Position numbers and translations under genes: made by a program. Of a stretch of 64,000 nt of DNA, positions 12,307 through 34,489 are shown in pieces (position 1 is the stretch's first letter; every line of letters begins with the position of its first letter). The notes beneath the pieces are model-generated. The model had not been told where the DNA came from, ran no database searches, and was given only the letters and a program-made list of their open reading frames with translations. Source of the DNA: Akkermansiaceae bacterium (GTDB taxonomy: Bacteria > Verrucomicrobiota > Verrucomicrobiia > Verrucomicrobiales > DEV007); the NCBI GenBank assembly GCA_024233005.1, contig JACKQE010000003.1, positions 219,434-283,433 on the forward strand, given 5' to 3'.

Positions 12307-12327
12307 GTCGTGGGAGGGCGCAGTGCA

Positions 12328-14012: not shown

Positions 14013-14135
14013 GTGGTTGTCGCAGGTGACACCCGCTTCTCAGTGAGTTCAGTTTCCAGGAGACTGAGTCGCCGGGCGACCATGTTGATGCTTGCGTCGC
14101 CCTCTCCGTCTACTACAGAGAGGGAATCTTCTGAA

Positions 14136-14343: not shown

Positions 14344-14428
14344 TCAGACCCCAAATGCAAGACCTCCGCCACCCGTCACTGGGTGAAAACCGTCCTCGTC
14401 ACCCGTGTGGAATTCGGGACGGGCCGCT

Positions 14429-14881: not shown

Positions 14882-15255
14882 GGTGCTCTATTTTGAATCT
14901 CCGACTTCCGAAGTCAAGTCTTCCCCATCTCGATCAACGCGTCCAGCTTGTGGAGCGCTCCCGGCGTCTGAAAGGCGTTGAGGAAGGGCGTGGTGAACCG
15001 GTTGGAATTCGCGCGCCTATTCGTGATGACGCGGACCATCCCCTGCTGGGTCACTGCGCCGACAATTCCCTCTGTGAATCCATTCCCTCGAATAGGACAC
15101 TGGGCAATTTGAGTCCGCACCCTGTGGTGGTTTAGTTGGTGCACTAGGGTTATCCAGCGACTACTGAAGCGTAAGACACCCGCATGCGCCCCCCCTCGGG
15201 GAGGCGCATCTGCGTCTGGAAAAGAGCCCCATTTGAGGCGATGCTGTGGGGCTCG

Positions 15256-17793
15256 ATGAAACGGATCCCCCCTCACCCTTTTGGCAGCATTTTTGTGGTT
15301 CAGGCTCTGGCAGTCCTCGGGGCCGGCACCGGATGGACACAGGAAACCGACTTCAATCGGGACATCCGTCCCATTCTTGCGGAGAACTGCTTTTACTGCC
15401 ACGGGCAGGATGGGAACAAGCGCAAAGCGGAACTCCGCCTCGACGTGCGGGAGGAAGCGATGAAAAAAGGGGCGATCGCCCCGGGAGACCTTGCCGCCAG
15501 CGGTTTGGTGGAAAGGATCCGGTCCGGCGATCCCAAGGAAATGATGCCTCCCCCCGATTCAAACCGCCGCCTCACCGCCGCTCAAAAAGAGCTGCTGACG
15601 CGCTGGATTGGAGCCGGAGCGAAGTACGCGGAGCACTGGGCGTTTGTCGCCCCCGTCCGACCGGTCGAACCCGGCGTGCGCGACCAGGCATGGCCCCGCA
15701 ACGCGATCGACCGCTTTGTCCTCGCCAAACTCGAGGCCGCTGGTATCACTCCCTCACCGGAGGCGGACCGAGCCACCCTGATCAAGCGCCTGTCCATCGA
15801 CCTCATCGGCCTGCCCCCTCAACCCTCAGAAATTGAAGCGTTCCTCAAGGACCAGGATCCCCGGGCCTATGAGAACCTGGTCGATCGCCTCCTCAACAGC
15901 CGCCACTATGGTGAACGCATGGCCCTGCCCTGGTTGGATGCGGCACGCTACGCCGACAGCAACGGCTTCCAGCAGGATGGCGACACCTGGCAGTGGCTCT
16001 GGCGCGACTGGGTCGTCCGGTCCATGAATGCGGACTTGCCGTTCGACCAGTTCACCCTCTGGCAACTCGCGGGCGATCTGTTGCCGGAGGCGACCACGGA
16101 TCAGAAAATCGCCAGCGGCTTCAACCGGAACCATTTGCTCAATGGCGAGGGGGGTGCCATTCCCGAAGAGCAGCGTTTCGTCAACCTTTTCGACCGCATC
16201 GACACCACCGCGACGACCTGGCTGGGGCTGACGATGGCCTGCGCCCAGTGCCATGATCACAAATACGATCCCATCACCCAGCGTGATTATTACAGCCTGC
16301 TTGACGCGTTCAACCGGGTGCCGGAATCCGGGACTCCGCAGCGCCAATCGGCTCGCATCCGGGTGGCCGCGCCTTTCCTGGAGCTGCCCACAGAGGAGAA
16401 TACGGCCCGGATCAGCGAGATGGAATCGAGAATCCGGGACACCGAAGCCAAGGCCAAGCCAGACATCGAAGCCGCCTTTGCCGAATGGCGGACGACAGTC
16501 CACCGCGGCACCAAAGACCTGCCAGAAAACCTGGTCTCGCTGCTGGGCAAAGCCGAGTCCGAACGCGGACCCGCCGGGGAGAAGGCGCTCGAGACCGGTC
16601 TGAGGAAGCATTTTGACGACAAGGTGCGTCCGGAACTGGGAAAGAAGATTCCGGCCGTGCAACAGATTGCGCAGCTGAAGAAAGATCTGGCGGACTACCG
16701 GGGCGACCAGATTCCCCGGCCCATGGTGATGAGCGATGATCGTCCACGGGAAACCAGCATTCTGGACCGCGGACAGTATCTCAGTCCACTGCAGCCGGTT
16801 GCGTTCGCCACCCCGGCCTTTCTGCCTCCGCTTCCCAAGGACGCCCCGCAGAACCGGCTTGGGCTGGCGCGGTGGCTGGTATCCCCCAGCCATCCGTTGA
16901 CCGCCAGAGTTCAGGTCAACCGAATGTGGCAGCACTTCTTCGGCCTCGGCATCGTCAAAACGTCGGAGGATTTCGGCGTGCAGGGCGAGTATCCGGTCCA
17001 CATGGCGCTGCTGGACTGGCTGGCGGTGGAGTTCCGCGAACACGGGTGGAGCCAGAAGCACCTCCACCGACTCATCGTCACCAGCTCCACCTACCGCCAA
17101 TCGAGCCGGGTAACGCCGCAGTTAAGGGAACTCGACCGCGAAAACCGCCTCTATGCCAGAGCGGGCCGTTTCCGAATGCCGTCCCTGATCCTGCGCGATT
17201 GGGCGCTGGGATCTTCCGGACTGCTGGTGCCAGAGATCGGGGGTCCCCCGGTTTACCCCTACCAACCGGATAATGTCTGGGAAGCGCTCGCCATCACCAA
17301 GGAACGCGATTTCACCTACCCGGCATCCACCGGAGCGGATCTCTACCGCCGCAGTCTCTACACCTTCTGGCGACGCACGGTCGGTCCAACCAACATGTTC
17401 GACGCTTCGGACCGCCAATCCTGCCGCGTCCGGCAGGGCAGCACCAGCACTCCCCTGCACGCGTTGACCACCTTGAATGATCCCACCTGGGTCGAAGCGG
17501 CCCGCGTCCTCGCGGAGCGATGCAGCAAAACCTCCGGCTCGACCGACGACCGGCTCGCCGAGGCCTTTGGTCGCGTGCTCTGCCGAAAGCCGGGCCCAAG
17601 CGAGCGGGACCGGTTGCGGCAGGCCCACGCCCGCCAGGCAGCCATTTACCGGAAGGATCCGGAAGCGGCCAAAGCACTGCTGGGAGTGGGGGCGAGCCCC
17701 CGTGACGCTTCCCTGGACCCCATTGAACAAGCCGCTTTCACCGCCGTCTGCCTCGGCATTTTCAATCTCGACGAAGCCCTCACCCGCGAATGA
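15256..17793 (+). CDS. PSCyt1/DUF1549/DUF1553 family secreted protein
   Basis: Start set at ATG 15256 ([24 protein letters not shown], signal-like). CFYCH at 15388..15402, [14 protein letters not shown]1549-like [19 protein letters not shown], and the DUF1553 tail. Confidence 0.8.
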
Positions 17794-19238
17794 ACTTTCC
17801 CGAAATCCTCCGTCACAACGCCGCCCTGGTCACCCGCCGACAACTGTTCGGCCGCACCGCCGGTGGTGTCGGCATGGCCGCATTGGCATCGCTGCTGCAG
17901 CAGGAGGGGGCCGTGGCCGCCCCAACTGGCACCACGGGACCACACCACCGGCCCAAGGCCAAGCGGGTGGTGATGCTCTGGCAGGGAGGAGCCCCCTCGC
18001 ACGTTGATCTCTTCGACTCCAAACCGATGCTGCAGAAAATGGCAGGAAAGGACATTCCGGATTCCGTGCGCGGCACGACCCGTCTGTCCACCATGTCGGC
18101 CAGCTACAAAAAGTGGCCCTGTGTGCCAGCGATCAAACCCTTCAAACCTTACGGGAGCGCCGGCACGATGATGAGCGAAATGCTGCCCAACATTGGAGCG
18201 TTGTCCGATGACCTCTGCCTGGTCCGCAGCATGCACACCGAGGCGGTGAACCATGCTCCCGGGGTGACCTTTTTCATGACCGGCGCCCAGGTTCCCGGGC
18301 GACCGAGCATGGGCGCCTGGCTCTCCTATGGTCTGGGCAGCGAGAGTGACAATCTGCCGGCATTCGTCGTGATGACCTCGAGCGACAAGGGGAGAACCTG
18401 CGGTCAGCTCTTTTTTGACTATTACTGGGGCAGCGGGTTTCTGCCCAGCCGCTACCAGGGCGTCCGCTTCCGCAACACCGGAGAGCCCGTTCCCTACCTG
18501 TCGAATCCTCCCGGGATCAGCCCAGCAGGACGGCGAGCCCTGCTTGATGACATCGCGGCGATGAATGCGGCACACCTGGCCGACTATGGGGATCCTGAAA
18601 TCGACACCCGGATCACCCAGTATGAGATGGCCTTCCGGATGCAGACCAGCGTGCCCGACTTGGTGGATTTTGCCGGGGAATCCCCGAAAACGATCGAGCG
18701 CTATGGACCGGACGCGTTGACCAAAGGAAGTTTCGCCAACAACTGCCTGGTAGCCCGACGGTTGCTGGAACGCGGAGTGCGTTTCGTGCAGTTGATGCAC
18801 TCGGGCTGGGACCAACACAGCAATCTGTTCACTCAGTTGGAAGTGCAATGCCGTGACACCGACGCCCCGGCCGCCGCCCTGGTGCAGGACCTGAAAGAGA
18901 GAGGTCTGCTCGAAGACACCCTGGTCGTCTGGGGTTGCGAATTTGGAAGGACTCCGTTCGGTCAGGGTGACCCGGCGAGTCCCAAAGGGCGTGACCATTT
19001 TGGCCGGGCTTACAGTTGGTGGCTGGCCGGTGGAGGCATCGCTCCCGGCACCGTCCATGGCGCCACTGACGACTTCGGTTGGAACATCACCGAAAACCCG
19101 GTCCATGTCCACGACATGCAGGCAACCATCCTGCATCTCTGCGGCATGGACCACGAACGCCTCACCTTCCGCTATCAAGGACGCCAGTACCGTCTCACCG
19201 ACGTTCATGGGGAGGTCGTGCGCGGCATTCTTTCCTGA
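17790..19238 (+). CDS. DUF1501 domain protein
   Basis: ATGA overlap with the upstream gene. Tat-like TRRQLFGRTAGGVGMAAL, LWQGGAPSHVDLFDSKP, GRDHFGRAYSWWLAGGGIAPG...TDDFG...VHDMQATILHLCGMD. Confidence 0.8.
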   Translation: MNFPEILRHNAALVTRRQLFGRTAGGVGMAALASLLQQEGAVAAPTGTTGPHHRPKAKRVVMLWQGGAPSHVDLFDSKPMLQKMAGKDIPDSVRGTTRLSTMSASYKKWPCVPAIKPFKPYGSAGTMMSEMLPNIGALSDDLCLVRSMHTEAVNHAPGVTFFMTGAQVPGRPSMGAWLSYGLGSESDNLPAFVVMTSSDKGRTCGQLFFDYYWGSGFLPSRYQGVRFRNTGEPVPYLSNPPGISPAGRRALLDDIAAMNAAHLADYGDPEIDTRITQYEMAFRMQTSVPDLVDFAGESPKTIERYGPDALTKGSFANNCLVARRLLERGVRFVQLMHSGWDQHSNLFTQLEVQCRDTDAPAAALVQDLKERGLLEDTLVVWGCEFGRTPFGQGDPASPKGRDHFGRAYSWWLAGGGIAPGTVHGATDDFGWNITENPVHVHDMQATILHLCGMDHERLTFRYQGRQYRLTDVHGEVVRGILS

Positions 19239-19407
19239 GATTGCCGCTTTTTCCGGGAACTTGGGATGTCCTCCGGTCAGCGGAACCTGGCGCCCACAGG
19301 GAGGAATCCGCCCGCCGATTGCGGTCCGGAACTAAACTCCAAGAACTACTTCCCTCGCAGTTACGCCATTGCCAATGGGACCCCCGATCCTATACATTCC
19401 CCGCCTC

Positions 19408-22104
19408 ATGGCATCCCCCTCTCCCTCGAATGGCCTCCGGCGCGTGGTCAGCGCATCGATTCCCACCCTGGCGGCCACGATCCGGTTGGGGGTTCTTCTC
19501 GTGGGGATTCAGGGCCACGCTGCCGCGGGCGGAGCGGAACCCGGTCCACTCCCGGCCTTCCTTCAAACCCACTGCGTGGAATGCCATGACGCCGATAGCC
19601 ACAAGGGCAATCTCGATCTTACCACCCTGCAGCCAAAATTTGACGGCGCGGACGCCTTCGCCCGCTGGGTCAAGATTCATGACCGGATCGTGTCGGGGGA
19701 AATGCCTCCGCGAAAGAAACCCCGCCCCGCCGCCGGAGAACTCGCCGCCGTCACCCAATGGCTCTCCGGATCTCTGAATGAAGCCGAGCAGGCCCATCTT
19801 GATGCCGCCACCCGCACGGGAGTGCGGAGGCTGACCCGGTCGGAATACGAAAACACCGTGCGTGATCTGTTCGACCTGCCGGGAATCGCTCTTCTGAGCG
19901 GACTCCCTGCCGACGGATCGGCGCATGGTTTTGACAAAAACAGCGATGCGCTGGACATCTCGCACGTCAATCTTTCCAAGTATCTGGAGGCGGCCGACAA
20001 GGTTCTCGACATGGCCATTGCGACCCAACCCACCGCGCCGGAGAAAACCACGGTGCGTCTCTCACTGGCAGGCAACTATGAGCCAAACATCATGTTGATG
20101 CAGGGCGATGCGGTGCTGCTCCGCGACAAGCAGCACGATCCCCTCTTCCCTCCGGCCGGCACATACGCCCACATCAACCAGGGAGCCCACGAGCAGCTCG
20201 GCATTTTCAAGCGGATGAGCAGTGTGGGGGTGTTCCGGCATGAGGACGAGTCGTGGAATGCCTACTTTCGGAAGTTCTCCGCCCTTTATCCGGGCCGCTA
20301 CCGTGTCCGCGCCTCTTTCTGGAGCATGACCTGGGACAAAGGCAAAGTCCTTCCCTCGCGGGGCGTCGAGGCGGCCCGGCTCTCTGTGGTGCAATTCAAC
20401 GAAAACGGCCGTGGCGGACAACACCCGAGTTACGTGCTGGGTTATTTCGACGCGCCTTCCATCGAGTCCCGGACGCATGAATTGGATGTCTGGTTCAACC
20501 AGAAAGAAACGATCGGATTCAACACCGCCTCCCTGGCTCCAGTGGTGCTTTACCGCGTGGGAACCTGGGGCCAGGTGGACCGCACGATGGGCTTCACCGG
20601 TCCCTGCATCGTCAATGACTGGCTCGACATCGAAGGCCCGTTTCACGACGTGTGGCCGCCTCGCAGTCACCAGCTGCTCTTCGGCGAACTCCCCCTCATC
20701 GAATTCAAGCCGGCCGACCATCCGGATGTCCGTCCGCCCGTCCGCAAGCCCCTCAAACAGGAGATTGTCGGTTGCGACAACAAGCCCGAACCTGTCCAGG
20801 GAATCTGGACCGTGGGGAGCCACGAGCCGCTGGCTGACGCGGACCGCCTGCTGGCGGCATTCCTGCCCAAAGCCTTCCGCCGTCCGGTGGGAGAGGATGT
20901 GCGCCGGTCCTATGTCGGTCTCGTCTCATCGCGGCTCACCGCGGGGGATGCCTTTGAAACGGCCATGCGCCAGGCCTACCGCGCGGCGCTCTGCTCGCCG
21001 GACTTCCTCTACCACGTCGAACCTCCCGGTCCCTTGGACGAGTTCGCCCTCGCGTCCCGGCTTTCTTATTTCCTGTCCAACTCGAAACCGGATGAGGTCC
21101 TCTCCGGACTGGCGACCGCTGGGAAATTACGGGAGGCGACCGTGCTCCGGGAACAGGTCGGACGACTCTTGGCCGATCCGAAATCCCAGCGGTTTATCGA
21201 GGATTTCCTCGCGCAATGGCTCAAGCTGGGAGCCATCGGCGCGAACGATCCAGACAAGAAACTCTACCCCGAATTCAGCCCCTACCTTCAAGACTCCATG
21301 GTTGCTGAAACCCGCGCCTACTTCCGCGAACTGATCGACCGGGACCTCGACGCGGGCCATCTGGTGAAGTCGGACTTCGCCATGCTCAATGAAAAACTCG
21401 CCACGCACTATGGCATTCCCGGGGTGAGCGGACCGGCCATCCGCCGGGTCGCCCTGCCTCCAGATTCCCCCCGCGGCGGGTTCCTGACCCAGGCCGCGAT
21501 ACTGAAGGTCACCGCCAACGGCACGACCACGTCACCGGTGCCGCGCGGCGCGTTTGTTCTCGCCAGACTGCTGGGACAGCCTCCCGACCCGCCTCCGTCC
21601 AGCGTTCCGGCGGTGGAACCGGATGTCCAGGGGGCCACCACCATCCGCGAACAGCTCGCGAAGCACCGCTCCGACGCGGTGTGTTCCTCCTGCCACGCCA
21701 AAATAGATCCCCCCGGATTTGCCTTGGAAAGCTTCGATGTGATCGGGGGCTGGCGCGACCGCTACCGCTCGATCGGGCAAGGTGATCCGGCGCCACGTGG
21801 CAGCATTGATCCCCGGATCGGCATCGGTTTCAAGCTGGGCCCCCCGGTTGATCCCGGCGGCGCACTTCCCGACGGTCGCCAATTTCATGATGTGATCGAG
21901 TTGAAAGCGTTGCTGGCCGGGGACAAAAGCCAACTCCTCCACAACCTTGCCCGCCAGCTCACCGTCTACGCCACCGGGAGAGACATCGCTTTCCGTGACC
22001 GCAAGGCCCTCGACACCATCGTCGCCAGCACTGAGAAGCAAGGAGGCGGGATCCGCAGCCTGATACAGGAAATCGTCCTCAGCCCCCTGTTCCAAACCCG
22101 ATGA
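19408..22104 (+). CDS. DUF1587/DUF1592/DUF1595/DUF1588/DUF1585 (PSCyt3 + PSD2-5) family secreted protein, copy 1
   Basis: Start at ATG 19408 (signal-like). CVECH at 19573..19587, a second CxxCH (CSSCHAKIDPPGFALESFD) at 21682..21696, and the C-terminal IQEIVLSPLFQTR. Strongly similar to the 24270..26903 product. Confidence 0.8.
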   Translation: MASPSPSNGLRRVVSASIPTLAATIRLGVLLVGIQGHAAAGGAEPGPLPAFLQTHCVECHDADSHKGNLDLTTLQPKFDGADAFARWVKIHDRIVSGEMPPRKKPRPAAGELAAVTQWLSGSLNEAEQAHLDAATRTGVRRLTRSEYENTVRDLFDLPGIALLSGLPADGSAHGFDKNSDALDISHVNLSKYLEAADKVLDMAIATQPTAPEKTTVRLSLAGNYEPNIMLMQGDAVLLRDKQHDPLFPPAGTYAHINQGAHEQLGIFKRMSSVGVFRHEDESWNAYFRKFSALYPGRYRVRASFWSMTWDKGKVLPSRGVEAARLSVVQFNENGRGGQHPSYVLGYFDAPSIESRTHELDVWFNQKETIGFNTASLAPVVLYRVGTWGQVDRTMGFTGPCIVNDWLDIEGPFHDVWPPRSHQLLFGELPLIEFKPADHPDVRPPVRKPLKQEIVGCDNKPEPVQGIWTVGSHEPLADADRLLAAFLPKAFRRPVGEDVRRSYVGLVSSRLTAGDAFETAMRQAYRAALCSPDFLYHVEPPGPLDEFALASRLSYFLSNSKPDEVLSGLATAGKLREATVLREQVGRLLADPKSQRFIEDFLAQWLKLGAIGANDPDKKLYPEFSPYLQDSMVAETRAYFRELIDRDLDAGHLVKSDFAMLNEKLATHYGIPGVSGPAIRRVALPPDSPRGGFLTQAAILKVTANGTTTSPVPRGAFVLARLLGQPPDPPPSSVPAVEPDVQGATTIREQLAKHRSDAVCSSCHAKIDPPGFALESFDVIGGWRDRYRSIGQGDPAPRGSIDPRIGIGFKLGPPVDPGGALPDGRQFHDVIELKALLAGDKSQLLHNLARQLTVYATGRDIAFRDRKALDTIVASTEKQGGGIRSLIQEIVLSPLFQTR

Positions 22105-22664
22105 GAACCACGATCGCCCTCTGCCTGTGCTGGGTGCTCTGCGCCGCCCTCCCAGCCCCCGAACTCCTGGCCGGGGAGCAGACCGCCACATTCCGCCTCA
22201 TCGGCCTGAGCCACCCCGAGCGGGAAGAGGATTTCCACCAGGTGATGCAGTCGCTGCCGGACCTGAAACTCGAGCGATGGGATGCCGCGAAGGCTGAAGT
22301 CACCCTGCGCTATGACACTGCCAGGCTGTTCCCCACCTCCAAGCCGGATCAGGTCTTCCCGCCGGAGAAAATTCTTGAACACCTCGACAAGCTCATCGGC
22401 CAGGCATCCAACCGCACCTTCAGCCTGACCGCCCCCCTTTCGGTGCAGGACAGCGAATTGACCAAGGTGGAGATCCCCTGCGGGTTCCTCGACTGCAAAG
22501 GCTGCCGCTATGCGGTCTACTTGGCGGTGGCGAAAACCGAGGGCGTCGCCCGGGCCTCCGTCAGCTCTGAAACAGGAGTTCTCACGGCTTGGATCGAGAC
22601 CGGCAAAACCAACCGTGAAACCCTGATCGAAGCCCTCAAAAAAGCCCGGGTGGAACTCCCCTGA
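22101..22664 (+). CDS. Secreted tandem HMA-like (ferredoxin-fold) protein, second domain with CxxC, copy 1
   Basis: ATGA overlap with the upstream gene and a signal peptide (MRTTIALCLCWVLCAALPA). The C-terminal half, KVEIPCGFLDCKGCRYAVYLAVAKTEGVARASVSSETGVLTAWIE...TLIEALKKARVEL, follows the heavy-metal-associated domain pattern (G.xCxxC...GV....V.......v). CKGC is at 22494..22505. The N-terminal half has the same spacing but no Cys pair. Confidence 0.6.
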   Translation: MRTTIALCLCWVLCAALPAPELLAGEQTATFRLIGLSHPEREEDFHQVMQSLPDLKLERWDAAKAEVTLRYDTARLFPTSKPDQVFPPEKILEHLDKLIGQASNRTFSLTAPLSVQDSELTKVEIPCGFLDCKGCRYAVYLAVAKTEGVARASVSSETGVLTAWIETGKTNRETLIEALKKARVELP

Positions 22665-22815
22665 AAACCCTCGCACCATCATCCCCCTCCCTCCGGGCTG
22701 GAAAGATGGTGTTCCTTCCGTTGGATTCCGGCTCAGCCAGGAGCGTATCCGCCCTCGCAGGCCTCGCAGTTGCGCCATTGCAAAAGTCGGCCGCAAGCCT
22801 GTAGATTCTCCCCAC

Positions 22816-24273: not shown

Positions 24274-26903
24274 AGCCCACCGCCCGCTGGACGCAAATGT
24301 TGGCGTGCCTCCCGATGGTGGTGTTCCACGCCGCGCCGGCCACTGCCGAGCCCGGACCACTGCCGGCATTTCTGGAGACCCATTGTCTGGAATGCCATGA
24401 CTCCGATAGTCGCAAAGGAAATCTCGATCTCACGGCACTGCGGTCCGATTTCGCCAACGCGGAAACCTTTGCCCGATGGGTCAAGATCCATGACCGGATC
24501 ACTTCAGGAGAAATGCCTCCGAAAAAAAAGGCCCGCCCCGAGGTCGGAGAAAGCGCCGCGTTCATCGAGTGGCTCTCGGGATCGCTCATCAAGGCCGAAA
24601 AGGCTCGCGTCGCTGGCGCAGGCCGGACGGGGGTGCGCCGGCTAACCCGGACGGAATACGAGAACACCCTGCGCGATCTCTTCGACATGCCCGGTCTCGC
24701 CCTGCAAAACCTGCTTCCGGCGGACGGTTCGGCACACGGCTTTGACAAGAACAGTGACGCGCTGGACATCTCCCACGTCCATCTCGCGAAATACCTTGAG
24801 GCCGCCGATCTCACGCTCGATCTCGCCATCGCCACCCAACCGAAGGCTCCCACGGTGCAAAAGCGCCGCATCTCCCTGATGAACCGGGGAGGCTTTGTCG
24901 CCCACATTGTCATGAACGGCGATGGGGTCCTCCTGCGGGACATGAAGCCCGACCCCGACTTTCCCGCCTCTGGCGAGCACAAGCACATCGACCAGGGAGC
25001 GCATGAGCAGATCGGTTCCTTTGAAACCGGGAGCACCGTGGGCCTGTTCCGCCATGAGGACGAGTCGGTCAGCCCCTATTTCATGGAGCACGTCACCATT
25101 TACCCCGGCCACTACCGGGTCCGCACCTCGCTCTGGGCCTTCCAGTGGGACAAAGGTCAAGTCCTTCCCGCGCGCGGCACCGAGGCCGCACGGCTCTCGG
25201 TCGTGCAGCTCACCGGCGACGGCCGGGGCGGCCAACATCCCAGTTATGTCCTCGGTTACTATGATGCGCCTTCGCTCAGTCCCACCGAGCACGAGGTGAA
25301 GGTGTGGTTGAACCACAACGAGCTCATCGGATTCAACGCCGCCTCGCTCGCGCCCGTGGCAAATTACAACCGCAAGGGACGCGCCATGGCCTTCACCGGG
25401 CCCGGCATTGCCGTGGATTGGCTGGAAATCGAGGGACCACTGCATGAAGAATGGCCCCCCCGTTCACATCGGCTGCTGTTTGGAGAACTGCCCCTGAAAG
25501 AGTTCCCATCCGGAGAGCAGGAAGGGCAGCGCCCCCCCGTGAGGAAGAAGGTCAGGCAGCTGGGCGCCGGCCTGAACCGCCCCGATCCCGGAGCCGGGCT
25601 TTGGAGCGTGCAGAGTGCCCAACCCCTGGTCGACGCCGAGCGCTTGCTCGCCGGGTTCCTTCCCAAAGCCTTCCGGCGTCCCGTGTCCCCGGAAGTGCGC
25701 CAGTCGTATCTGGAGATCGTCAAGCAACGCCTGAAAGCTGGCGACTGCATTGAAACCGCTCTCCGCGAGGCCTACCGGGCGGCTCTCTGCTCCCCGGACT
25801 TTTTGTACCAGGTCGAGCCCGCGGACGGACTCGACGACTACGCCCTGGCCGCCCGCCTCTCCTATTTTCTGTGGAATTCGGCGCCCGATGATGAACTTCT
25901 CGCCCTCGCTGCACGAAACACCCTGCACGATCCCGGAACTCTTCGTTCCCAGACCGAGCGTTTGCTGGGAGATGTGAAATCGCAACGGTTCATCGATGAC
26001 TTTCTCGGCCAGTGGCTCAAGCTCCGTCAGATTGCGGCAAACGATCCCGACAAGAAGCTCTACCCAGAATTCAGTCCCTATTTGCAGGATAGCATGGTCG
26101 CCGAAACCCGCGCCTATTTCCGCGAACTCATTGAGAAAGACCTCGACGCCACCCACCTCGTCAGATCCAGATTCGCCATGCTGAATCAAAAGCTCGCCAC
26201 CCATTATGGCATCGACGGCGTGATCGGCCCCAAGATCCGCCGCGTCGATTTGCCGCCGGGATGCCCCCGCGGAGGATTCCTCACCCAGGCCTCGATCCTG
26301 AAAGTCACTGCCAACGGCACCACCACCTCGCCCGTGGTGCGCGGAGCCTTCGTCCTGGACCGCATCCTTGGAAAGCCACCCGAGCCTCCTCCCTCGAGTG
26401 TCCCCGCCGTCGAGCCGGACGTGCGCGGCACCACCACCATCCGCGAGCAGCTCGACAAACATCGCAATGACGCCGCCTGCGCCACCTGCCATGCAAAGAT
26501 CGATCCTCCCGGTTTCGCCCTCGAAAGCTTCGATGTCATCGGAGGTCAGCGCTCGCGTTACCGCAGCATCGGGGAAGGCTTGGGCGATCCCGCCCCCCGG
26601 GGGACCATCGACCCTTTCATTGGCATCAGCTTCAAACTCGGCCCGCCGGTCGACTCCGCCGGGGTCATGCCTGGGGGGAGATCGTTCAGCGATATCCGTG
26701 ACATGCAGGACATCCTCGCGGAACACCCGGAAGTTCTGCTTCACACCCTCGCCCGTCAGTTCCTGATTTACAGCACCGGTCGTGACATCGCGTTTTCGGA
26801 CCGAGCCGCCCTCAACGACCTCCTCACCAGAACCGGTCCGAAAGGCGGCGTGCGGTCGCTTCTGCACCAGCTCATCCAAAGTCCACTGTTCCAAACTCGA
26901 TGA
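24270..26903 (+). CDS. DUF1587/DUF1592/DUF1595/DUF1588/DUF1585 family secreted protein, copy 2
   Basis: CLECH at 24384..24398, CATCHAKIDPPGFALESFD at 26478..26492, and the C-terminal HQLIQSPLFQTR. Long identical runs shared with copy 1 include EPGPLPAFL.THC.ECHD, FARWVKIHDRI.SGEMPP and LPADGSAHGFDKNSDALDISHV. Confidence 0.8.
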   Translation: MKPTARWTQMLACLPMVVFHAAPATAEPGPLPAFLETHCLECHDSDSRKGNLDLTALRSDFANAETFARWVKIHDRITSGEMPPKKKARPEVGESAAFIEWLSGSLIKAEKARVAGAGRTGVRRLTRTEYENTLRDLFDMPGLALQNLLPADGSAHGFDKNSDALDISHVHLAKYLEAADLTLDLAIATQPKAPTVQKRRISLMNRGGFVAHIVMNGDGVLLRDMKPDPDFPASGEHKHIDQGAHEQIGSFETGSTVGLFRHEDESVSPYFMEHVTIYPGHYRVRTSLWAFQWDKGQVLPARGTEAARLSVVQLTGDGRGGQHPSYVLGYYDAPSLSPTEHEVKVWLNHNELIGFNAASLAPVANYNRKGRAMAFTGPGIAVDWLEIEGPLHEEWPPRSHRLLFGELPLKEFPSGEQEGQRPPVRKKVRQLGAGLNRPDPGAGLWSVQSAQPLVDAERLLAGFLPKAFRRPVSPEVRQSYLEIVKQRLKAGDCIETALREAYRAALCSPDFLYQVEPADGLDDYALAARLSYFLWNSAPDDELLALAARNTLHDPGTLRSQTERLLGDVKSQRFIDDFLGQWLKLRQIAANDPDKKLYPEFSPYLQDSMVAETRAYFRELIEKDLDATHLVRSRFAMLNQKLATHYGIDGVIGPKIRRVDLPPGCPRGGFLTQASILKVTANGTTTSPVVRGAFVLDRILGKPPEPPPSSVPAVEPDVRGTTTIREQLDKHRNDAACATCHAKIDPPGFALESFDVIGGQRSRYRSIGEGLGDPAPRGTIDPFIGISFKLGPPVDSAGVMPGGRSFSDIRDMQDILAEHPEVLLHTLARQFLIYSTGRDIAFSDRAALNDLLTRTGPKGGVRSLLHQLIQSPLFQTR

Positions 26904-27487
26904 CCGTTTTCCAACTGCCACAGATCCATCATCCGGCCTGCCTTGGAATGCTCGCGTTCCTTGGCGTGGTTCTGTTCGTGCCCGCAGGGCCGGAACTGGC
27001 CGCGGCCGAGTCCATCGTGCAGTACCGCGTCAACGGGTTGTTCCAGCCTGACCGCCAAGAAGCGCTCACCACCGCCGCACAAGCCCTTGAGGGGTGCCAC
27101 CTCACCGGGGTGGATTACGACACCGCCCTCGCATCCTTCGCCTACGACCCCGACCACCAACTCTTCAAGAATGCCAAGCCCGAACAGGTGCTCCAGCGGA
27201 TCAATGATCAGATCAGAAGGTTGACCAACGGCTGCTTCACGCTTTCCCTGCCCGGCAAACTCCCACCGGAAAAACTTGTCGAGATTCGGTTCGAGATCGA
27301 AGGTCTCGATTGCCTCGGTTGCTCGTTTGGGGCCTATCGTGCGGTCGCCGGCATTGATGGAGTGGAGCGCGCCACCGCCAGTTTCCATGAAGGCCGGCTC
27401 ACCGCCTGGATCGATCCCGCCAAAACGAACCGTGAAGCGCTGGCCGCCGCCCTGACTAAAAAAGAGATCACGATCCTCCACCCCTGA
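26900..27487 (+). CDS. Secreted tandem HMA-like protein with CxxC, copy 2
   Basis: ATGA overlap with the upstream gene and a hydrophobic N-terminus. EIRFEIEGLDCLGCSFGAYRAVAGIDGVERATASFHEGRLTAWIDPAKTNREALAAAL, with CLGC at 27311..27322. Shares LDC.GC, LTAWI and KTNRE.L with copy 1. An alternative start is at 26948. Confidence 0.6.
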   Translation: MTVFQLPQIHHPACLGMLAFLGVVLFVPAGPELAAAESIVQYRVNGLFQPDRQEALTTAAQALEGCHLTGVDYDTALASFAYDPDHQLFKNAKPEQVLQRINDQIRRLTNGCFTLSLPGKLPPEKLVEIRFEIEGLDCLGCSFGAYRAVAGIDGVERATASFHEGRLTAWIDPAKTNREALAAALTKKEITILHP

Positions 27488-27492
27488 CTGCC

Positions 27493-28752
27493 ATGACCAA
27501 GAACATTGTCCCCCGCCCGGCCTCGCTCCCCCGCCGCACTTTCCTGCGGGGAGCGGGGATCACCCTGAGCCTGCCGTTTCTGGAGGCCATGTGCCCGGCG
27601 TTTTCTTCCGCCGCCGAGTCCTCCATCCCACGCCGCATGGTCTGCATCCAGACCAACATGGGAATCCTGCCGCAGTTTTTCTTTCCGGAGAACGCGGGAC
27701 GCGACTACACTGCGAGCGTCTACTTGGAGCGACTCAAGACCCACCGCGACCAGATCACGGTCTTCTCGGGCGTCAGCCATCCCGTTGTCGATGGCGGACA
27801 CGCGGCGCAGAAATGCTTTCTGACAGGCACGCCGCACCCGGCCCGGGGCGGCTTTCGCAACGGCATTTCCCTGGACCAGTTCGCCGCGGAAGAAATCGGC
27901 AACCAAACCCGCTATCCGTCTCTCGTGCTCGCGGTCACGAATGAAAATGCCACGATGAGTTTCACCCGCAGCGGGGCTTCGATCCCTTCGGAACAGAGCC
28001 CGAAAAAATTGTTTGAACGTCTTTTCATCCAGGGCAACGCCAAGGAAGTTGAGGCGAATGTGGAAGCTCTGCAGCGGGGCCGCAGCTTGATGGACTTCGT
28101 GGGGGAACAGTCGAAGCGCCTCAGCCGGACCCTCTCCAAGAGTGACCAGTCCCGACTCGACCAGTACTTCACCGCGGTGCGGGATCTCGAACAGCGACTT
28201 CACAGCGCGGAGGAGTGGGAATACAAGCCCAAGCCCGCCGTCACGGCCAAAGCCCCCGAGGAAATCACCGACGCGCTGGAGTTCGTGCGCCGCACCGGTC
28301 AAACCTTCGATGTGATGAAACTTGCTCTTGAGACCGACTCCACACGGGTGATTTCCCTCTTCATTGACACCACCGTCATCCACAATATCACCCACCATGG
28401 CAACCGCCCCGAGGTTCTCGCCGAACTGCGCGGGCACGAGGAACGCCAGTTTGATGCCCTGAACGGTTTCCTGACGGCTCTGGCGGAGGCAAAAGAGCAG
28501 GGCGACACGTTGCTTGATCGCACCCAGGTCTACTACGGCACCTGCATGGGAAGCGCCAACTCCCACAGCAATGTGAACCTGCCGGCACTGCTGGCGGGTG
28601 GCGGATTCAAACACGGCCAACATCTCGCCTTCGACAAGGACCACAACCACCCTCTGACGAACCTTTACGTCTCCATGCTGCAACGGCTGGGCATCGATAC
28701 CGGGGAGTTTTCCACCGGCAAGACGACCATCAAGGGACTGGAGATGGCCTGA
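27493..28752 (+). CDS. DUF1552 domain protein (Tat signal)
   Basis: The N-terminal PRRTFLRGAGITLSLPFLEAM is the hallmark DUF1552 start. About 420 aa. Located 5 nt after the HMA-like gene. Confidence 0.75.
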   Translation: MTKNIVPRPASLPRRTFLRGAGITLSLPFLEAMCPAFSSAAESSIPRRMVCIQTNMGILPQFFFPENAGRDYTASVYLERLKTHRDQITVFSGVSHPVVDGGHAAQKCFLTGTPHPARGGFRNGISLDQFAAEEIGNQTRYPSLVLAVTNENATMSFTRSGASIPSEQSPKKLFERLFIQGNAKEVEANVEALQRGRSLMDFVGEQSKRLSRTLSKSDQSRLDQYFTAVRDLEQRLHSAEEWEYKPKPAVTAKAPEEITDALEFVRRTGQTFDVMKLALETDSTRVISLFIDTTVIHNITHHGNRPEVLAELRGHEERQFDALNGFLTALAEAKEQGDTLLDRTQVYYGTCMGSANSHSNVNLPALLAGGGFKHGQHLAFDKDHNHPLTNLYVSMLQRLGIDTGEFSTGKTTIKGLEMA

Positions 28753-28780
28753 CCACTCCTCCGGCGCATCCAGTTATTCG

Positions 28781-31700
28781 TTGCACCATCCAACCATGAA
28801 ATTGATCCTCTCCGCAATGCCGCAAGCATTGTTCTACCCAGTCGTGTTCCTGCTTCCGACTGCCGCGGTGAAATCCGACGAGGGAAGCGCTTTCTTCGAA
28901 TCGAAAATCCGTCCGATTCTCATTGAAAGCTGCTACGACTGCCACAGTGCCGAGGGGAAGCACAAGGGGGGATTGTCTCTCGACACGAAGGAAGGCGTGC
29001 TCAAAGGTGGTGAGACCGGCGCGGCGGTGGTGCCCGGCGACACGGCGAAAAGTTTGCTGCTGACGGCGGTGCGCCATACCGATCCCGACCTTGCGATGCC
29101 GCCGAAGAAAAAACTCAGCGATGCCCAGATCGCCGATCTGGAACGCTGGGTGGTCATGGGAGCCCCTGACCCCCGCTCCGGCGCCAAGCCAGCGACGAAA
29201 CTGGAGGAACATTTCGCCACCGCCAAAACGCACTGGTCCTTCCAGAAAGTCATCCAACCGGCAGTGCCCGCCGTGCCCGGAGCCACGCACCCGATCGATG
29301 CCTTCATCCGTGAAAAACTCGCGTCCGCCAAGCTCTCGCCTTCTCCGAAAGCGGATGCCCGCACCCTGATCCGTCGCGTCTCTTTCGATCTCACCGGGTT
29401 GCCGCCGTCACCGGAGGAAGTGGAGTCCTTTGCCAAAGCGCACGCCCAAAACCCCGACAGGGCCTTCCAGGATCTTGTCGAAACGCTTCTCGCCTCTCCG
29501 CATTATGGGGAACGCTGGGGACGCCACTGGCTCGACGTGGCCCGGTATGCCGACAACATGGGCTCGATCTACAACGGGGACGACAGCTACCCGTATGCCT
29601 TCACCTACCGGGATTATGTGGTCCGCTCCTTCAACGAGGACAAACCCTACGATCTTTTCCTGCGCGAACAACTCGCCGCCGATCTGCTCCCCGGTGCCGA
29701 TCCCCGGGACAACTCACGGCTTGCCGCCCTGGGCTTTCTGAATCTGGGAAGACGCTATGACCGCAAGGTGGACGACAACAACATTGACGACCGCATCGAC
29801 CTCATTTCCCGGGGCCTGCTCGGTCTGACCGCAGGTTGCGCCCGCTGCCACGACCACAAGCTGGAGCCCATTCCCACGAAGGACTATTACGCGCTTTACG
29901 GCATCTTCAAAAGCTGTGCCGAGCCGGCCATCTATCCGGTGCTGCTCCCCCAGCCCGTCAGCCCCGAAAGCGCGGCTTACGATGCTGAAAACCGGAAGGC
30001 GCGCACGGCCTACAGCACCGCGAGCATCGCGGCCGCCAACGCTGCCTCCGCGCAGGCACGAAGCCGGGTGGGCGACTATCTCATGACGGCGGAGCAGTCC
30101 GGTTGGAAAACCCACTATGATAACAAGGGCATCATGGATGTGATCACCCAGCGAAAGCTTCAGGGTGACCTGCACAACGCGATGACCCGCGCCCGAAAAT
30201 CCTGGATCGAAGCGCATCCCGAAGTGTTCGGTCCCTTTCTGGAGTTCATCACCGGCAATCCGTTGGAACCCAAGCCGGTCCTCCACCCTCTGGTGGCCAA
30301 AGCTTTCGCCACGCCCGCAACCACCCTGGAGGAGTTTGCGGCGCGCTACAACGGGCTCTTTGCGGATATCGACGGAGACTGGCGAAAACTCGCCGAAGGC
30401 CCCCTGCAGCAAGCGGCCAAGTTGCAGGAAGCGGACCTCGATCCTCCGGTGGACAAGCTCGCCACCCAGTCCATCGCCCGAATGGACGCAGTGGAGAACA
30501 CCCTGCCGTTGCCCGATGCGGACCGCGAGGCTCTGCGTCAAATTCTCATCGCCAAAGACTCGCCGGTGAAGATCGCCCCGGAACGGTACTCCGTGGCGCG
30601 GCTGTTTCCGGAACCGGAAAAGAAGGAAATGGACAAGCTCGCCAAACCGGTCACGGAGTTGACGAAACATCCCGGCGCGCCGGTGAGGGTCATGGCGCTG
30701 GAGGATACCAAACCGTATGATGCCAGGATTTTTCTGCGGGGAGATCCCAAAACACCGGGAGATCCCGCTCCGCGCGCCTTTTTCACCCTCCTGACACCGG
30801 AAGGAGCCGAGCCTTTCCCAAAGGACCGCAGCGGTCGGTTGGAACTCGCCAACGCCCTGGTGGACCCGATGAATCCTCTCACCGCCCGGGTCATCGTGAA
30901 CCGCGTCTGGCAGTGGCACTTCGGCGAGGGGTTGGTCCGGAGCACCAGTGACTTCGGTCTTCGGGGGACGCCTCCGACCCACCCCGCGCTTCTCGACTGG
31001 CTTGCCTCCCGGTTCGTGGAGAGCGGTTGGAGTTTTAAAACGCTCCACCGGCTCATGCTTTCCAGTGAGACCTGGCAACAGGACAGCCGTCCCCGCGCAG
31101 ACCTTGCCAAAACGGATCCCGACAATGCCCTCTGGGGACGCTCTCTGGCGAGGCCCCTTGAGTTCGAGCCCTTCCGGGACGCCCTGCTCAGTGTGGCCGG
31201 GGTGCTCGAAGAACACCTCGAGGGCAAGCCGACCGATTTGCTCAAGGAAGCATCATTACGGCGAACGATTTATGCAACGGTGGACCGAAAAACCCTGCCG
31301 GGACTTTTCCGCAGTTTCGATTTCCCCGATCCCAACTTCACCGCCGCCGGCCGCGGACGCACCGCCCTGACCCCGCAGGCCCTCTACCTGCTGAACAGCG
31401 CCACGGTGGTCGACCGGGCGCGTGACCTGGCCCGGCAGGTGCGCCCCGATTCTCCGTCTGGAAATGCCGGAGGCATCCGCGAGCTTTACCGCAAAGTCTT
31501 CCAGAGGCTTCCCGGAGAGAAAGAACTGGCCCGGGCGGAAGCTTTTGTGTCCCAGCATCCCGAGCATGACGTCGTCATGCCCGAAGTAACCGACTGGACC
31601 TACGGGTTTGGTGAATTCGACGCCACAACCCATACCATCGCCCATTTCACCCCGTTGCAGTTCGCCGGGGATGTCGTCAAAGGAGGCAAGGTCGGCGACC

Positions 31701-32185
31701 AGGACACCACCGGTTTGGAGTTCAATGCCCAGGGAGGTCAGCCCGCAGCGGGGATGGCCGCGGCGGTGCGTCGCTGGACCGCTCCCCGGGACGGCACGCT
31801 CACCATCTATGCAGAACTGCTCCACCAGAGCAAGGAAGGGGACGGCGTCGTTTGCCGGATTCTCTCCAGCCGGGACGGACTGCTTGGAGAGTGGACCGCC
31901 ATCAATCAATCCATCCTGACTACCCTGGATGATGTGAAGGTGAAGAAAGGGGACACGCTGGATTTTGCCGCCCTCTGCCGGAACGATCCCAAATCCGACA
32001 CCTACCAATGGGCGCCGACCATCACCATGACCACGGCGGAAATGCCCGGGATGAGCGGCATGGCGATGCGGTGGGATGCCCGCTCGAATTTCCTCAATCC
32101 GGCCAAAATGCCCGAGCCCTTGGGTGCCTGGGAAGAGTTGGCGCAGGTGCTGCTGCTTTCCAACGAATTCATCTTCGTGGAGTGA
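28781..32185 (+). CDS. PSCyt1/DUF1549/DUF1553 family secreted protein with about 190-aa C-terminal insertion
   Basis: CYDCH at 28931..28945, [29 protein letters not shown], and the terminal VLLLSNEFIFVE. An alternative start is ATG 28796 (MKLILSA...). An unassigned region encoded by about 31563..32140 precedes the terminal helix. Confidence 0.8.
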   Translation: MHHPTMKLILSAMPQALFYPVVFLLPTAAVKSDEGSAFFESKIRPILIESCYDCHSAEGKHKGGLSLDTKEGVLKGGETGAAVVPGDTAKSLLLTAVRHTDPDLAMPPKKKLSDAQIADLERWVVMGAPDPRSGAKPATKLEEHFATAKTHWSFQKVIQPAVPAVPGATHPIDAFIREKLASAKLSPSPKADARTLIRRVSFDLTGLPPSPEEVESFAKAHAQNPDRAFQDLVETLLASPHYGERWGRHWLDVARYADNMGSIYNGDDSYPYAFTYRDYVVRSFNEDKPYDLFLREQLAADLLPGADPRDNSRLAALGFLNLGRRYDRKVDDNNIDDRIDLISRGLLGLTAGCARCHDHKLEPIPTKDYYALYGIFKSCAEPAIYPVLLPQPVSPESAAYDAENRKARTAYSTASIAAANAASAQARSRVGDYLMTAEQSGWKTHYDNKGIMDVITQRKLQGDLHNAMTRARKSWIEAHPEVFGPFLEFITGNPLEPKPVLHPLVAKAFATPATTLEEFAARYNGLFADIDGDWRKLAEGPLQQAAKLQEADLDPPVDKLATQSIARMDAVENTLPLPDADREALRQILIAKDSPVKIAPERYSVARLFPEPEKKEMDKLAKPVTELTKHPGAPVRVMALEDTKPYDARIFLRGDPKTPGDPAPRAFFTLLTPEGAEPFPKDRSGRLELANALVDPMNPLTARVIVNRVWQWHFGEGLVRSTSDFGLRGTPPTHPALLDWLASRFVESGWSFKTLHRLMLSSETWQQDSRPRADLAKTDPDNALWGRSLARPLEFEPFRDALLSVAGVLEEHLEGKPTDLLKEASLRRTIYATVDRKTLPGLFRSFDFPDPNFTAAGRGRTALTPQALYLLNSATVVDRARDLARQVRPDSPSGNAGGIRELYRKVFQRLPGEKELARAEAFVSQHPEHDVVMPEVTDWTYGFGEFDATTHTIAHFTPLQFAGDVVKGGKVGDQDTTGLEFNAQGGQPAAGMAAAVRRWTAPRDGTLTIYAELLHQSKEGDGVVCRILSSRDGLLGEWTAINQSILTTLDDVKVKKGDTLDFAALCRNDPKSDTYQWAPTITMTTAEMPGMSGMAMRWDARSNFLNPAKMPEPLGAWEELAQVLLLSNEFIFVE

Positions 32186-34392: not shown

Positions 34393-34489
34393 AAAAAATT
34401 GGATCGGGGGGGGATTGTGAAATGACGCCTACTGTAAAATGAAACCAAACCTTTGCCAGCGACTTCGACCAAAGTCTGATGGCCAAAAC

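Follow-up and report, generated by a model that had tools for sequence, protein, structure and literature searches.

A conserved trio with a putative metal-holding subunit in a variable stack of 'planctomycete-specific cytochrome' modules of an Akkermansiaceae bacterium

In a stretch of 64,000 nucleotides (nt) from an Akkermansiaceae bacterium (assembly GCA_024233005.1, contig JACKQE010000003.1, positions 219,434 to 283,433 of the forward strand; hereafter the window), nine genes between positions 15256 and 32185 encode large secreted proteins with heme motifs, proteins of the DUF1501 and DUF1552 families, and small secreted proteins with tandem heavy-metal-associated (HMA) domains. We read this array, with a probability of about one half, as a lineage-specific stack of four 'planctomycete-specific cytochrome' (PSCyt) modules of the Planctomycetota-Verrucomicrobiota-Chlamydiota (PVC) type, at the core of which lies a trio whose small HMA protein would be the metal-holding subunit of a heme-protein/metalloenzyme complex. 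The conserved functional unit is this trio, composed of a large protein of type L3, a tandem-HMA protein and a DUF1552 protein, and not the stack; the array is one of many variable stacks and not a conserved machine.

A preliminary description of this DNA had reported nine plus-strand open reading frames (ORFs), all co-directional, and the ORF list bears this out. The four ATGA stop/start overlaps that it placed within the array (at 17790, 22101, 24270 and 26900) and a fifth at 9812, in a separate upstream pair, were all found again in the sequence; our motif scan returned the same number of CxxCH motifs, 8 in the array and 10 with the gene at 6654; and the family names given for the array genes agree with the Pfam matches. 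The large proteins fall into two types by their Pfam domains, PSCyt1-PSCyt2-PSD1 (L2: g1 and g9) and PSCyt1-PSD3-PSD5-PSD4-PSCyt3-PSD2 (L3: g3 and g6), and the genes are as follows.

15256-17793, plus strand: g1, large secreted protein of type L2, 845 amino acids (PSD1 3.5e-91, PSCyt2 1.6e-84, PSCyt1 6.5e-15)
17790-19238, plus strand: g2, DUF1501 protein, 482 amino acids (Pfam 1.5e-147), with the twin-arginine translocation (Tat) motif TRRQLF; its start overlaps the g1 stop (ATGA)
19408-22104, plus strand (mechanical ORF from TTG 19369): g3, large secreted protein of type L3, lineage B (Pfam)
22101-22664, plus strand: g4, secreted tandem-HMA protein, 187 amino acids, lineage B, with the motif FLDCKGC; its start overlaps the g3 stop (ATGA)
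22816-24273, plus strand: g5, DUF1501 protein, 485 amino acids (Pfam 2.7e-143), with the Tat motif SRREFL; its stop overlaps the g6 start (ATGA)
24270-26903, plus strand: g6, large protein of type L3, 877 amino acids, lineage A (Pfam)
26900-27487, plus strand: g7, secreted tandem-HMA protein, 195 amino acids, lineage A (profile and structure matches)
27493-28752, plus strand: g8, DUF1552/HXXSHH protein, 419 amino acids (Pfam 3.2e-70), with the Tat motif RRTFL
28796-32185, plus strand (ORF from TTG 28781, 1134 amino acids): g9, large protein of type L2 (Pfam)
6654-9815 and 9812-11242, plus strand: upstream L2/DUF1501 pair, separate from the array (Pfam; ATGA at 9812)

Overlaps of the ATGA kind are commonplace between co-directional bacterial genes and are thus unremarkable by themselves. 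With the likeliest ATG starts, the non-overlapping gaps measure 169, 151, 5 and 43 nt, the first and last shrinking to 130 and 28 nt if counted from TTG; g3 most likely starts at ATG 19408, TTG 19369 itself being the -35-like hexamer of a promoter-like site. No L2 gene lies directly upstream of g5 and no DUF1501 gene follows g9; the two stand 4.5 kb apart with the whole L3-HMA-DUF1552 trio between them, and g9 is probably the split partner of g5. The product of g8 is the presumed catalytic subunit. All four DUF1501/DUF1552 proteins bear an S/T-R-R-x-F-L twin-arginine motif, and the large and the small HMA-like proteins have Sec-type N-termini, in agreement with the periplasmic targeting proposed earlier; judged by these N-termini, all nine products are expected outside the cytoplasm.

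The 'extra metal-binding component' of the preliminary description proved real, as a conserved third partner of one PSCyt3/DUF1552 orthologue group that is sometimes fused to the large protein. In the present study, homologues of g7 were located by exact-protein context look-ups, in 43 species-level genomes and in 80 metagenome contigs, the loci were mapped by tblastn with the window proteins, and removal of near-duplicates left 96 non-redundant locus clusters. The HMA gene came directly after the L3 gene in 57 of the 61 loci with a visible upstream side, and DUF1552 was adjacent in 52 of 56 determinable loci (41 in the order DUF1552-L3-HMA and 11 as L3-HMA-DUF1552). Taxa represented among the loci include Verrucomicrobiales, Chthoniobacterales, Limisphaerales, Gemmatales, Pirellulales, Isosphaeraceae and Phycisphaera. 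Across both phyla, identity to the window copy ranged over 60-75% for L3 (median 65%), 61-87% for DUF1552 (median 70%) and 34-63% for the HMA protein (median 41%); other L3 and DUF1552 paralogues in the fetched loci were 27-48% identical, and more than 120 DUF1552 clusters (90%-identity) stood at 71% identity or above to g8.

Searched exhaustively by HMMER, the profile of the HMA family gave 135 representatives (50% clusters) at E<=1e-30, and some family members are natural fusions. The protein P0305 (1100 amino acids) is a complete L3, followed by a linker of about 70 residues without a signal-peptide-like stretch and by a tandem HMA module with DCQAC intact. In P0344, P0264, P0246 and P0349 the L3 C-terminus is joined to the HMA module and the N-terminal part of L3 is missing, probably cut off by the contig end. 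Taken together, fusions and gene order argue that L3, rather than DUF1552, is the primary partner of the HMA protein. When the ORFs surrounding the trio were clustered for the window and the first 46 fetched loci, no family other than those of the trio came out as conserved, and the next-best neighbour family was DUF1501, from 10 sources with the window included. Additionally, one locus (L033, 10525-11373) and six related Verrucomicrobiaceae loci have an ORF of about 280 amino acids, without a Pfam match, directly after the HMA gene, and an SGL/gluconolactonase-like gene before DUF1552; the SGL, GHL10, NrdR and HIT neighbours of this ORF look like lineage synteny.

The small proteins g4 and g7 are 36% identical to each other. 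Both scored below the gathering threshold of the Pfam HMA family PF00403 (18.6 bits for g4 and 20.7 bits for g7 versus 24.8), a precomputed PF00403 match is present in many homologues, and NCBIfam returned sub-threshold matches to UxxU_metal_bind (3.7e-13) and MerP (1.5e-6). Searched against the PDB, the family profile (A1) matched the tandem HMA domains of ATP7B (E=5.8e-17) in an alignment that runs through both halves of the protein, GLFQPDR standing opposite GMTCQSC and GLDCKGC opposite GMTCxSC. The AlphaFold2 model of g7 (62 sequences; predicted local distance difference test score, pLDDT, 89.8) consists of two beta-alpha-beta-beta-alpha-beta units, and among PDB structures Foldseek ranked first the two-domain HMA units of ATP7B and of CopA from B. 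subtilis, followed by MerP and CopZ-like proteins (2rop, 2rml, 1p6t and 1osd among them; E down to 1.8e-7, single-domain template modelling (TM) scores of 0.8-0.9). Profile and structure together bear out the sub-threshold HMA matches of Pfam.

The N-terminal domain of g7 is degenerate, reading GLFQPDR with both cysteines lost, and the C-terminal domain carries GLDCLGC. Residues D137, C138, C141 and Y146 are invariant in the 62 sequences, which places a metal-site pattern in the second domain only, and the CxxC (C138-x-x-C141), at the end of strand 1 and start of helix 1, aligns with the metal-binding CxxC of Cu-ATPase domains. The motif GMTCxxC is typical of Cu(I)/Hg(II) proteins. In ZntA the motif is GMDCAAC, as we confirmed against PDB entry 1mwy, and there too an Asp precedes the first Cys; this Asp, reportedly from work by Banci and colleagues in 2002, ligates Zn(II) in ZntA. 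The Asp before the first Cys suggests that a metal ion held at the site of the small protein would be divalent and of the Zn type, as in ZntA.

The HMA domains of P1B-type ATPases (ATP7B domains 3-4 and the N-terminus of B. subtilis CopA), MerP, CopZ and the N-domain of ZntA have the same fold as g7. Unlike the ATPase domains, however, g7 is free-standing and secreted instead of forming the cytosolic N-terminus of a pump, its first domain has lost both cysteines, and its partner is a heme-motif protein. Some family members have additional domains, namely a C-terminal F5/8 type C (discoidin) domain on P0315, P0323, P0333 and P0346 and leucine-rich repeats on P0251; P0323, the sole one of these five that was read, retains DCxxC.

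On the side of the large proteins, all six domains of L3 in g3 and g6 exceeded the Pfam gathering scores, as did PSCyt1, PSCyt2 (DUF1549) and PSD1 (DUF1553) in g1, g9 and the 6654 gene. Every large protein has two CxxCH motifs, beginning in the array at nt 15388, 16240, 19573, 21682, 24384, 26478, 28931 and 29837 and in the 6654 gene at nt 6819 and 7629; they correspond to amino acids 45 and 329 of g1 and to amino acids 39 and 737 of g6, in which an MPP motif occupies residues 82-84. In 41 L3 sequences both CxxCH motifs and the M-P-P about 40 residues past the first of them are conserved, with C39, C42, H43, M82, P83, P84, C737, C740 and H741 (g6 numbering) each at 97% or more. PSCyt1 scored above its own gathering threshold, sub-threshold matches to Cytochrom_C and Cytochrome_CBB3 (E 4e-5 to 6e-3) fell in the same N-terminal domain, and a His/Met class-I heme domain is plausible for the N-terminal PSCyt1.

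The internal motif reads CxxCH-x-K-x-DP in L3 and CxxCHDHK in L2. The preliminary description had given the internal patterns with DP, but g9 reads CARCHDHKLEP, ending in EP instead of DP. Comparison of L2 with L3 by hhalign left PSCyt1 alone as clearly common (95%), and a PSD4/PSCyt2 similarity between the two (20%) was set aside as unconvincing. Sequence searches of the PDB with g8, g2, g6 and g1 singly gave no significant match.

The sulfatase fold claimed earlier for the DUF1501 and DUF1552 proteins stood in part. What holds is a distant profile resemblance of DUF1501 to sulfatases (12 of its 14 weak PDB matches are sulfatases or LtaS, the best being 7stt at E=1.3e-3, and only the C-terminal core is aligned), together with the homology of DUF1552 to DUF1501, for which hhalign gave a probability of 96.6% (E=6e-10, 289 columns) with invariant His and Asp positions aligned. 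Since the DUF1552 profile by itself matched nothing in the PDB, DUF1552 is linked to sulfatase-type structures only via DUF1501. What did not hold is the identity as sulfatases: the C/S-x-P-x-R signature after the first beta strand was not found at the expected position in DUF1501 or g8, the region reading GG(A/P/V)SH.D.FD.KP in DUF1501 and QTNMGILPQFFFP in g8, and Pfam Sulfatase gave no match even at E<=10. Together with the missing PDB match of DUF1552 by itself, these two results argue against a formylglycine-dependent sulfatase (S1). Both families appear to be distant members of, or neighbours to, the alkaline-phosphatase superfamily, and not sulfatases proper. Homologues were sought a second time with a profile made from divergent DUF1552 sequences, and this yielded the tight orthologue group again and no deeper alignment.

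As for transcription, the preliminary description had taken the array for an apparent operon, and a single operon sits poorly with two near-identical promoter-like elements in the 169-nt and 151-nt gaps.

19354-19398, plus strand: promoter-like element 1, the 19-mer CTCGCAGTTACGCCATTGC and then TTGCCA-N18-TACATT, ending 9 nt before ATG 19408
22763-22807, plus strand: promoter-like element 2, the 19-mer CTCGCAGTTGCGCCATTGC and then TTGCAA-N18-TAGATT, ending 8 nt before ATG 22816

The exact common 19-mer, CTCGCAGTTRCGCCATTGC, has 2 copies in the window versus 0.05 expected, and at its core lies an imperfect palindrome (GCAGTTGC/GCCATTGC), which overlaps the -35-like TTGCMA. In the relatives L005 and L008, which are contigs of metagenome-assembled genomes (MAGs), no change is seen in the -10-like hexamer or in the 46 nt that run up to the -35-like hexamer, and the spacer and the rest of the gap vary. 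It is only because of the common 19-mer that the two gap sites are credible. Neither the 19-mer nor its palindromic core was found upstream of g1 or of the 6654 pair, the scan gave no terminator-like site in the plus-strand gaps, and Rfam found no RNA family in 13000-33500. We read the elements as two candidate near-leaderless promoters with a common operator, before g3 and before g5, which suggests at least three transcription units (g1-g2, g3-g4 and g5-g9); the stack is probably read as three. Because both begin with the same promoter/operator-like element, g3-g4 and g5-g9 are probably co-regulated.

The favoured explanation would divide the array into four modules, namely an ordinary L2/DUF1501 pair (g1-g2), an L3 and tandem-HMA pair of lineage B that would have lost its own DUF1552 (g3-g4), a complete trio of lineage A (g6-g7-g8), and a split-looking DUF1501/L2 pair flanking that trio (g5 and g9). 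L3 would be exported by Sec with at least one c-type heme in its N-terminal PSCyt1. The small HMA protein, Sec-exported too, would dock on L3 and hold a thiophilic metal ion at its invariant Asp-Cys-x-x-Cys, a Zn-type divalent ion being suggested and Cu being possible. DUF1552, exported folded via Tat, would be a metallo-enzyme of the alkaline-phosphatase/sulfatase superfamily that works on L3, and the HMA protein would be a built-in metal-holding or metal-delivering subunit of the periplasmic L3-DUF1552 complex. The high conservation of the trio suggests that this complex may act on a chemically invariant substrate. Within the trio model, we give a little less than even odds to an HMA protein that docks on L3 and holds or hands over a probably divalent metal needed by L3-DUF1552; it is doubtful that a heme-driven redox step has the bound metal as its substrate, and doubtful to a somewhat greater degree, in equal measure, that the HMA CxxC is a redox-active dithiol or that it is merely structural in a glycan- or ester-processing system.

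Several points weigh against this reading. The promoter/terminator scan as a whole was at chance (promoters, 4 versus 2.6 expected; terminators, 20 versus 19.1), and what marks the promoter-like elements is their match to a consensus. When loci were sampled starting from DUF1552, the trio was recovered in 3 of five informative contexts. One of the two that differ, L051 (4777-17251), has a DUF1552 gene 76% identical to g8 in the order L2-DUF1552-L3-DUF1501 (overlapping)-2-oxoglutarate (2OG)-Fe(II) oxygenase, with DUF1501 in place of the HMA gene and another L2/DUF1501 pair on the other strand; in the other, L134, the DUF1552 gene (7001-8263, 75% identical to g8) is apparently an orphan with no L3 or HMA gene beside it. 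HMA genes are missing from most paralogous L3/DUF1552 and L2/DUF1501 pairs, which means that HMA is not needed for the basic chemistry of the family. At the internal CxxCH of PSCyt2 and PSCyt3 the heme is assigned from the motif alone, and a metal site could lie there. The AlphaFold2 run on g8 (39 homologues, 71-100% identity) ended at pLDDT 48 and was unusable, giving no active-site model. The alkaline-phosphatase superfamily is known for hydrolases and mutases and not for redox enzymes, and a heme protein is an odd partner for such a hydrolase-type fold. Furthermore, Tat-exported enzymes usually obtain their metal in the cytoplasm, which disfavours periplasmic delivery to DUF1552. To the gene order, homology, folds, motifs, conservation and fusions observed, the model would add heme attachment, metal binding, complex formation, a direction of metal or electron transfer and a substrate, all of which we infer. 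As a separate observation on L134, its DUF1552 gene is followed by a Ser/Thr protein kinase gene, and the locus may be a real orphan or an assembly artefact.

Turning to the stack, g3 and g6 are 67% identical and differ in their surroundings: g3 has no DUF1552 gene on either side, and g6 is followed by g8 after g7. The window accordingly holds one complete trio (g6-g8), one L3-HMA pair without DUF1552 (g3-g4), one L2/DUF1501 pair (g1-g2) and the split pair (g5, g9), of which g5 stands where the DUF1552 of lineage B would be. The nearest relatives of lineage B (g3, g4) are in Verrucomicrobiaceae, Prosthecobacter and Limisphaerales (L3 71-76%, HMA 46-61%), and those of lineage A (g6-g8) are Chthoniobacter, Prosthecobacter and Verrucomicrobiaceae loci (L3 about 70%, HMA 56-63%, DUF1552 83-87%); the two modules belong to two old lineages.

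Conservation of the stacked arrangement, for which the preliminary description had proposed a neighbourhood survey, was not borne out: a MAG of roughly 94% identity alone keeps the whole gene order, g3-g9 being found so only in the MAG contigs L005 and L008, whose proteins are 93-99% identical, and in relatives with an HMA protein about 60% identical the trio stands by itself or beside different genes. The statement that these families normally occur as isolated two-gene pairs was likewise too strong, more family members lying within 10 kb in about one third to one half of the longer trio loci. A tandem of HMA modules in the order B then A also occurs in a Prosthecobacter MAG (L013), where B keeps its DUF1552 and a KilA-N gene is inserted. 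This locus (1-18431) is a co-directional run of about 18 kb, composed of L2, L3-HMA-(KilA-N)-DUF1552, L3-HMA-DUF1552, a 516-amino-acid ORF, GFO/IDH/MocA and DUF1552-L3, and therefore large stacks of these families recur in other genera. The same five families form tight clusters in other orders elsewhere, as DUF1552-L3-HMA-L2-DUF1501 with gaps of 10-35 nt in L053, L2-DUF1501-DUF1552-L3-HMA in L129 and L133, and L2-DUF1552-L3-DUF1501 in L051.

Among about 146 flanks of the trio block, 11 had an L2 or DUF1501 gene within 300 nt, and beyond 300 nt the first-encounter rate was 0.011-0.025 per kb. The excess of adjacency is about 2-4-fold per gene slot, with p~0.003 by a rough Poisson estimate and ~0.02 without the window; for these neighbour counts the gene edges were set by tblastn, and the contigs differed in length. 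In neighbour-joining (NJ) trees, g9 groups with the trio-adjacent L2 of L020, L032, L053 and L051, g5 with the trio-adjacent DUF1501 of L020, L053 and L051, g1 and g2 with genes of L037, and g2 also with L011; the trees are without bootstraps and the groupings rest on 41-50% versus 35-40% identity. Stacking with L2/DUF1501 pairs recurs elsewhere in different orders, and immediate adjacency is modestly enriched.

The rival that survives best, although we hold it to be on the unlikely side, is that the stack is a chance result of local duplication and shuffling in an expanded family, with each module acting alone on its own substrate and no significance in their proximity. The family is indeed dense in these genomes, as the flank background of about 0.02 per kb indicates, and in R. 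baltica PSD1 and PSCyt2 are present in 41 copies each (PMC2754498). The g3-g4 and g6-g7 modules are paralogous (67% and 36% identity), other compositions exist in L013, L073, L088, L122 and L133, and a module of L013 carries the KilA-N insertion. Chance fits less well with the same promoter/operator-like element before two different first genes, the L3 gene g3 and the DUF1501 gene g5, with the modest enrichment of adjacency, with the recurrence of the B-plus-A tandem in the Prosthecobacter MAG, and with g3-g4, which has no DUF1552 of its own and may depend on g8 or on its DUF1501 neighbour.

Less probable again, in our estimate, is a trio that serves as a metal-detoxification or metal-redox system, in which the HMA-bound metal, be it Cu(I), Hg(II) or another thiophilic ion, would be oxidised or reduced by the L3 heme with DUF1552 as an accessory. 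The HMA protein is tied to L3 and not to DUF1552, its gene comes after L3 wherever the two are linked and is at times fused to it, its nearest folds include MerP and CopZ next to the sub-threshold UxxU_metal_bind and MerP matches, and the high conservation suggests an invariant and possibly inorganic substrate. Nevertheless, among the scanned genes flanking the array in the window no MerR/CueR regulator, P-type ATPase or MerT/MerA is annotated, and no neighbour family beyond the trio is conserved in the 46 loci mentioned above, the clusters of which were not searched for these names. With its invariant Asp ahead of the first Cys, the site is closer to ZntA than to GMTCxxC, and DUF1552, as the most conserved gene of the trio, is a poor fit to an accessory role. 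A mer/cop-type resistance locus was rejected for want of partner genes, since no metal-sensing regulator, transporter, reductase or other mer/cop gene is annotated among the Pfam-scanned flanking genes of the window.

We consider it improbable that the nine genes form one operon, whose two pair types and HMA proteins would cooperate as one redox/metal machine of many components in the periplasm. The nine co-directional genes, the four ATGA overlaps and the absence of terminator-like sites from the scanned plus-strand gaps would agree with it, as would the tight co-directional clusters of the same five families in L053, L129, L133 and L051, the 11 of about 146 trio flanks with L2 or DUF1501 within 300 nt against about 0.02 per kb farther out, and the grouping of g5 and g9 with the L2/DUF1501 neighbours of the trio elsewhere. 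Against it stand the two internal promoter-like elements, an order and composition that differ in every lineage, and the majority of trio loci, which have no L2/DUF1501 neighbour. Moreover, the enrichment per gene slot is only the 2-4-fold given above (p~0.003; ~0.02 without the window), and the NJ groupings are those drawn without bootstrap at 41-50% versus 35-40% identity.

Equally improbable is a role of the modules in processing glycans or organic esters, in which the large proteins would bind, DUF1501 and DUF1552 would hydrolyse sulfate or phosphate esters, and the HMA protein would be a disulfide-bearing structural adaptor. The window neighbours include a GH16 gene (12328-13629, minus strand), a GFO/IDH/MocA gene and polysaccharide export genes, the discoidin-type domain occurs at the C-terminus of P0315, P0323, P0333 and P0346, and DUF1501 resembles sulfatases. 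Carbohydrate-binding modules (CBMs) and F5/8C domains on PSCyt proteins, as well as sulfatase neighbourhoods, have been described in the literature (PMC5615132; PMC3542564). On the other side, the C/S-x-P-x-R signature is missing from its expected position, Pfam Sulfatase has no match at E<=10, and no family of carbohydrate-active enzymes (CAZymes) came out as a conserved neighbour of the trio in the clustered loci. An identity of 60-87% across two phyla is unusual for substrate-diversifying glycan systems, and the invariant Asp-Cys-x-x-Cys with Tyr is a metal-site pattern.

The PSCyt and PSD domains of these modules were reportedly described by Studholme and colleagues in 2004. It had been noted earlier that none of the families has an experimentally established function, and our literature searches on the DUF and PSCyt names likewise turned up no functional study. 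The L2/DUF1501 modules of the PVC superphylum have been described, with their function unknown at the time (Kamneva et al. 2012, PMC3542564); g1-g2 and the 6654-11242 pair match this module, a CxxCH-bearing PSCyt1/2 and PSD1 protein being followed by a twin-arginine DUF1501 protein, whereas g5 and g9 are separated by the whole L3-HMA-DUF1552 trio. The accessible part of that paper deals with DUF1501-centred clusters and mentions neither the HMA partner nor DUF1552. PSCyt2- and PSCyt3-type genes have also been reported to pair with two families of unknown genes (He 2017, PMC5615132). The genes g6 and g8 qualify as the PSCyt3/DUF1552 pair of that report, and g3 and g6 show the usual order of domains, but the tandem-HMA gene, lying between the two or after the pair, marks a distinct and unusually conserved orthologue group. 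In the searchable literature we found no mention of the HMA partner, of L3-HMA fusions, of the DUF1552-DUF1501 homology or of the conserved orthologue group.

One lead comes from Cellvibrio japonicus, whose extracellular protein Cbp2D combines c-type cytochrome domains with a DUF1587 (PSD3) domain and can reduce copper lytic polysaccharide monooxygenases (LPMOs) (Branch et al. 2021, PMC8981238). Like L3, Cbp2D is a secreted protein that joins a class-I-like heme c domain with PSD3/DUF1587, and its role is tied to a metal enzyme. Unlike L3, it has CBM, YceI-like and FN3 domains and lacks PSD4, PSD5, PSCyt3 and PSD2, and the likeness is one of Pfam domain name and a lead only.

In Planctomycetota and Verrucomicrobiota, few uncharacterised families are as large as PSCyt, PSD, DUF1501 and DUF1552, the coding density of these genes is high in lake Verrucomicrobia (PMC5615132), and their very diversity has hindered the choice of a member to study. 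The trio singles out one orthologue group that is highly conserved across two phyla and comes with a candidate regulatory element; its third subunit has a well-understood fold and a testable putative metal site, and the natural L3-HMA fusion argues for a physical complex. More speculatively, and with only a slim chance in our view, the trio might be the conserved and perhaps ancestral core of the whole PSCyt/DUF1501/DUF1552 superfamily and form a periplasmic enzyme of a new kind, in which the docked HMA protein would present its metal both to the heme-motif protein (a CxxC-to-CxxCH hand-over) and to the catalytic subunit with the alkaline-phosphatase fold. If this were true, solving the trio would reveal the role of dozens of paralogues per PVC genome.

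Several further genes of the window deserve mention. A GntR/FCD regulator gene (5831-6649, plus strand) ends 4 nt before the upstream L2/DUF1501 pair, and the pair is followed by a GFO/IDH/MocA oxidoreductase gene (11314-12306, plus strand), a family likewise present within the L013 stack, and by the GH16 glycoside hydrolase gene on the minus strand. The gene at 14429-14881 (minus strand), divergent from g1 across a 374-nt spacer, encodes a secreted protein of 150 amino acids without CxxCH; its matches to two four-helix heme proteins, cytochrome b562 and cytochrome c', are sub-threshold. Beyond the array, a DUF3500 gene (32224-33258, minus strand) is convergent with g9, and the polysaccharide synthesis/export block (33328-38788, minus strand) contains an NAD epimerase, a flippase-like Polysacc_synt gene and two Wza-like Poly_export/SLBB genes. 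Finally, the gene at 38997-40136 (plus strand) carries AsnC_trans_reg2 and NirDL-like HTH domains, typical of siroheme decarboxylase of the alternative heme biosynthesis route, and could have a bearing on how this organism is supplied with heme.

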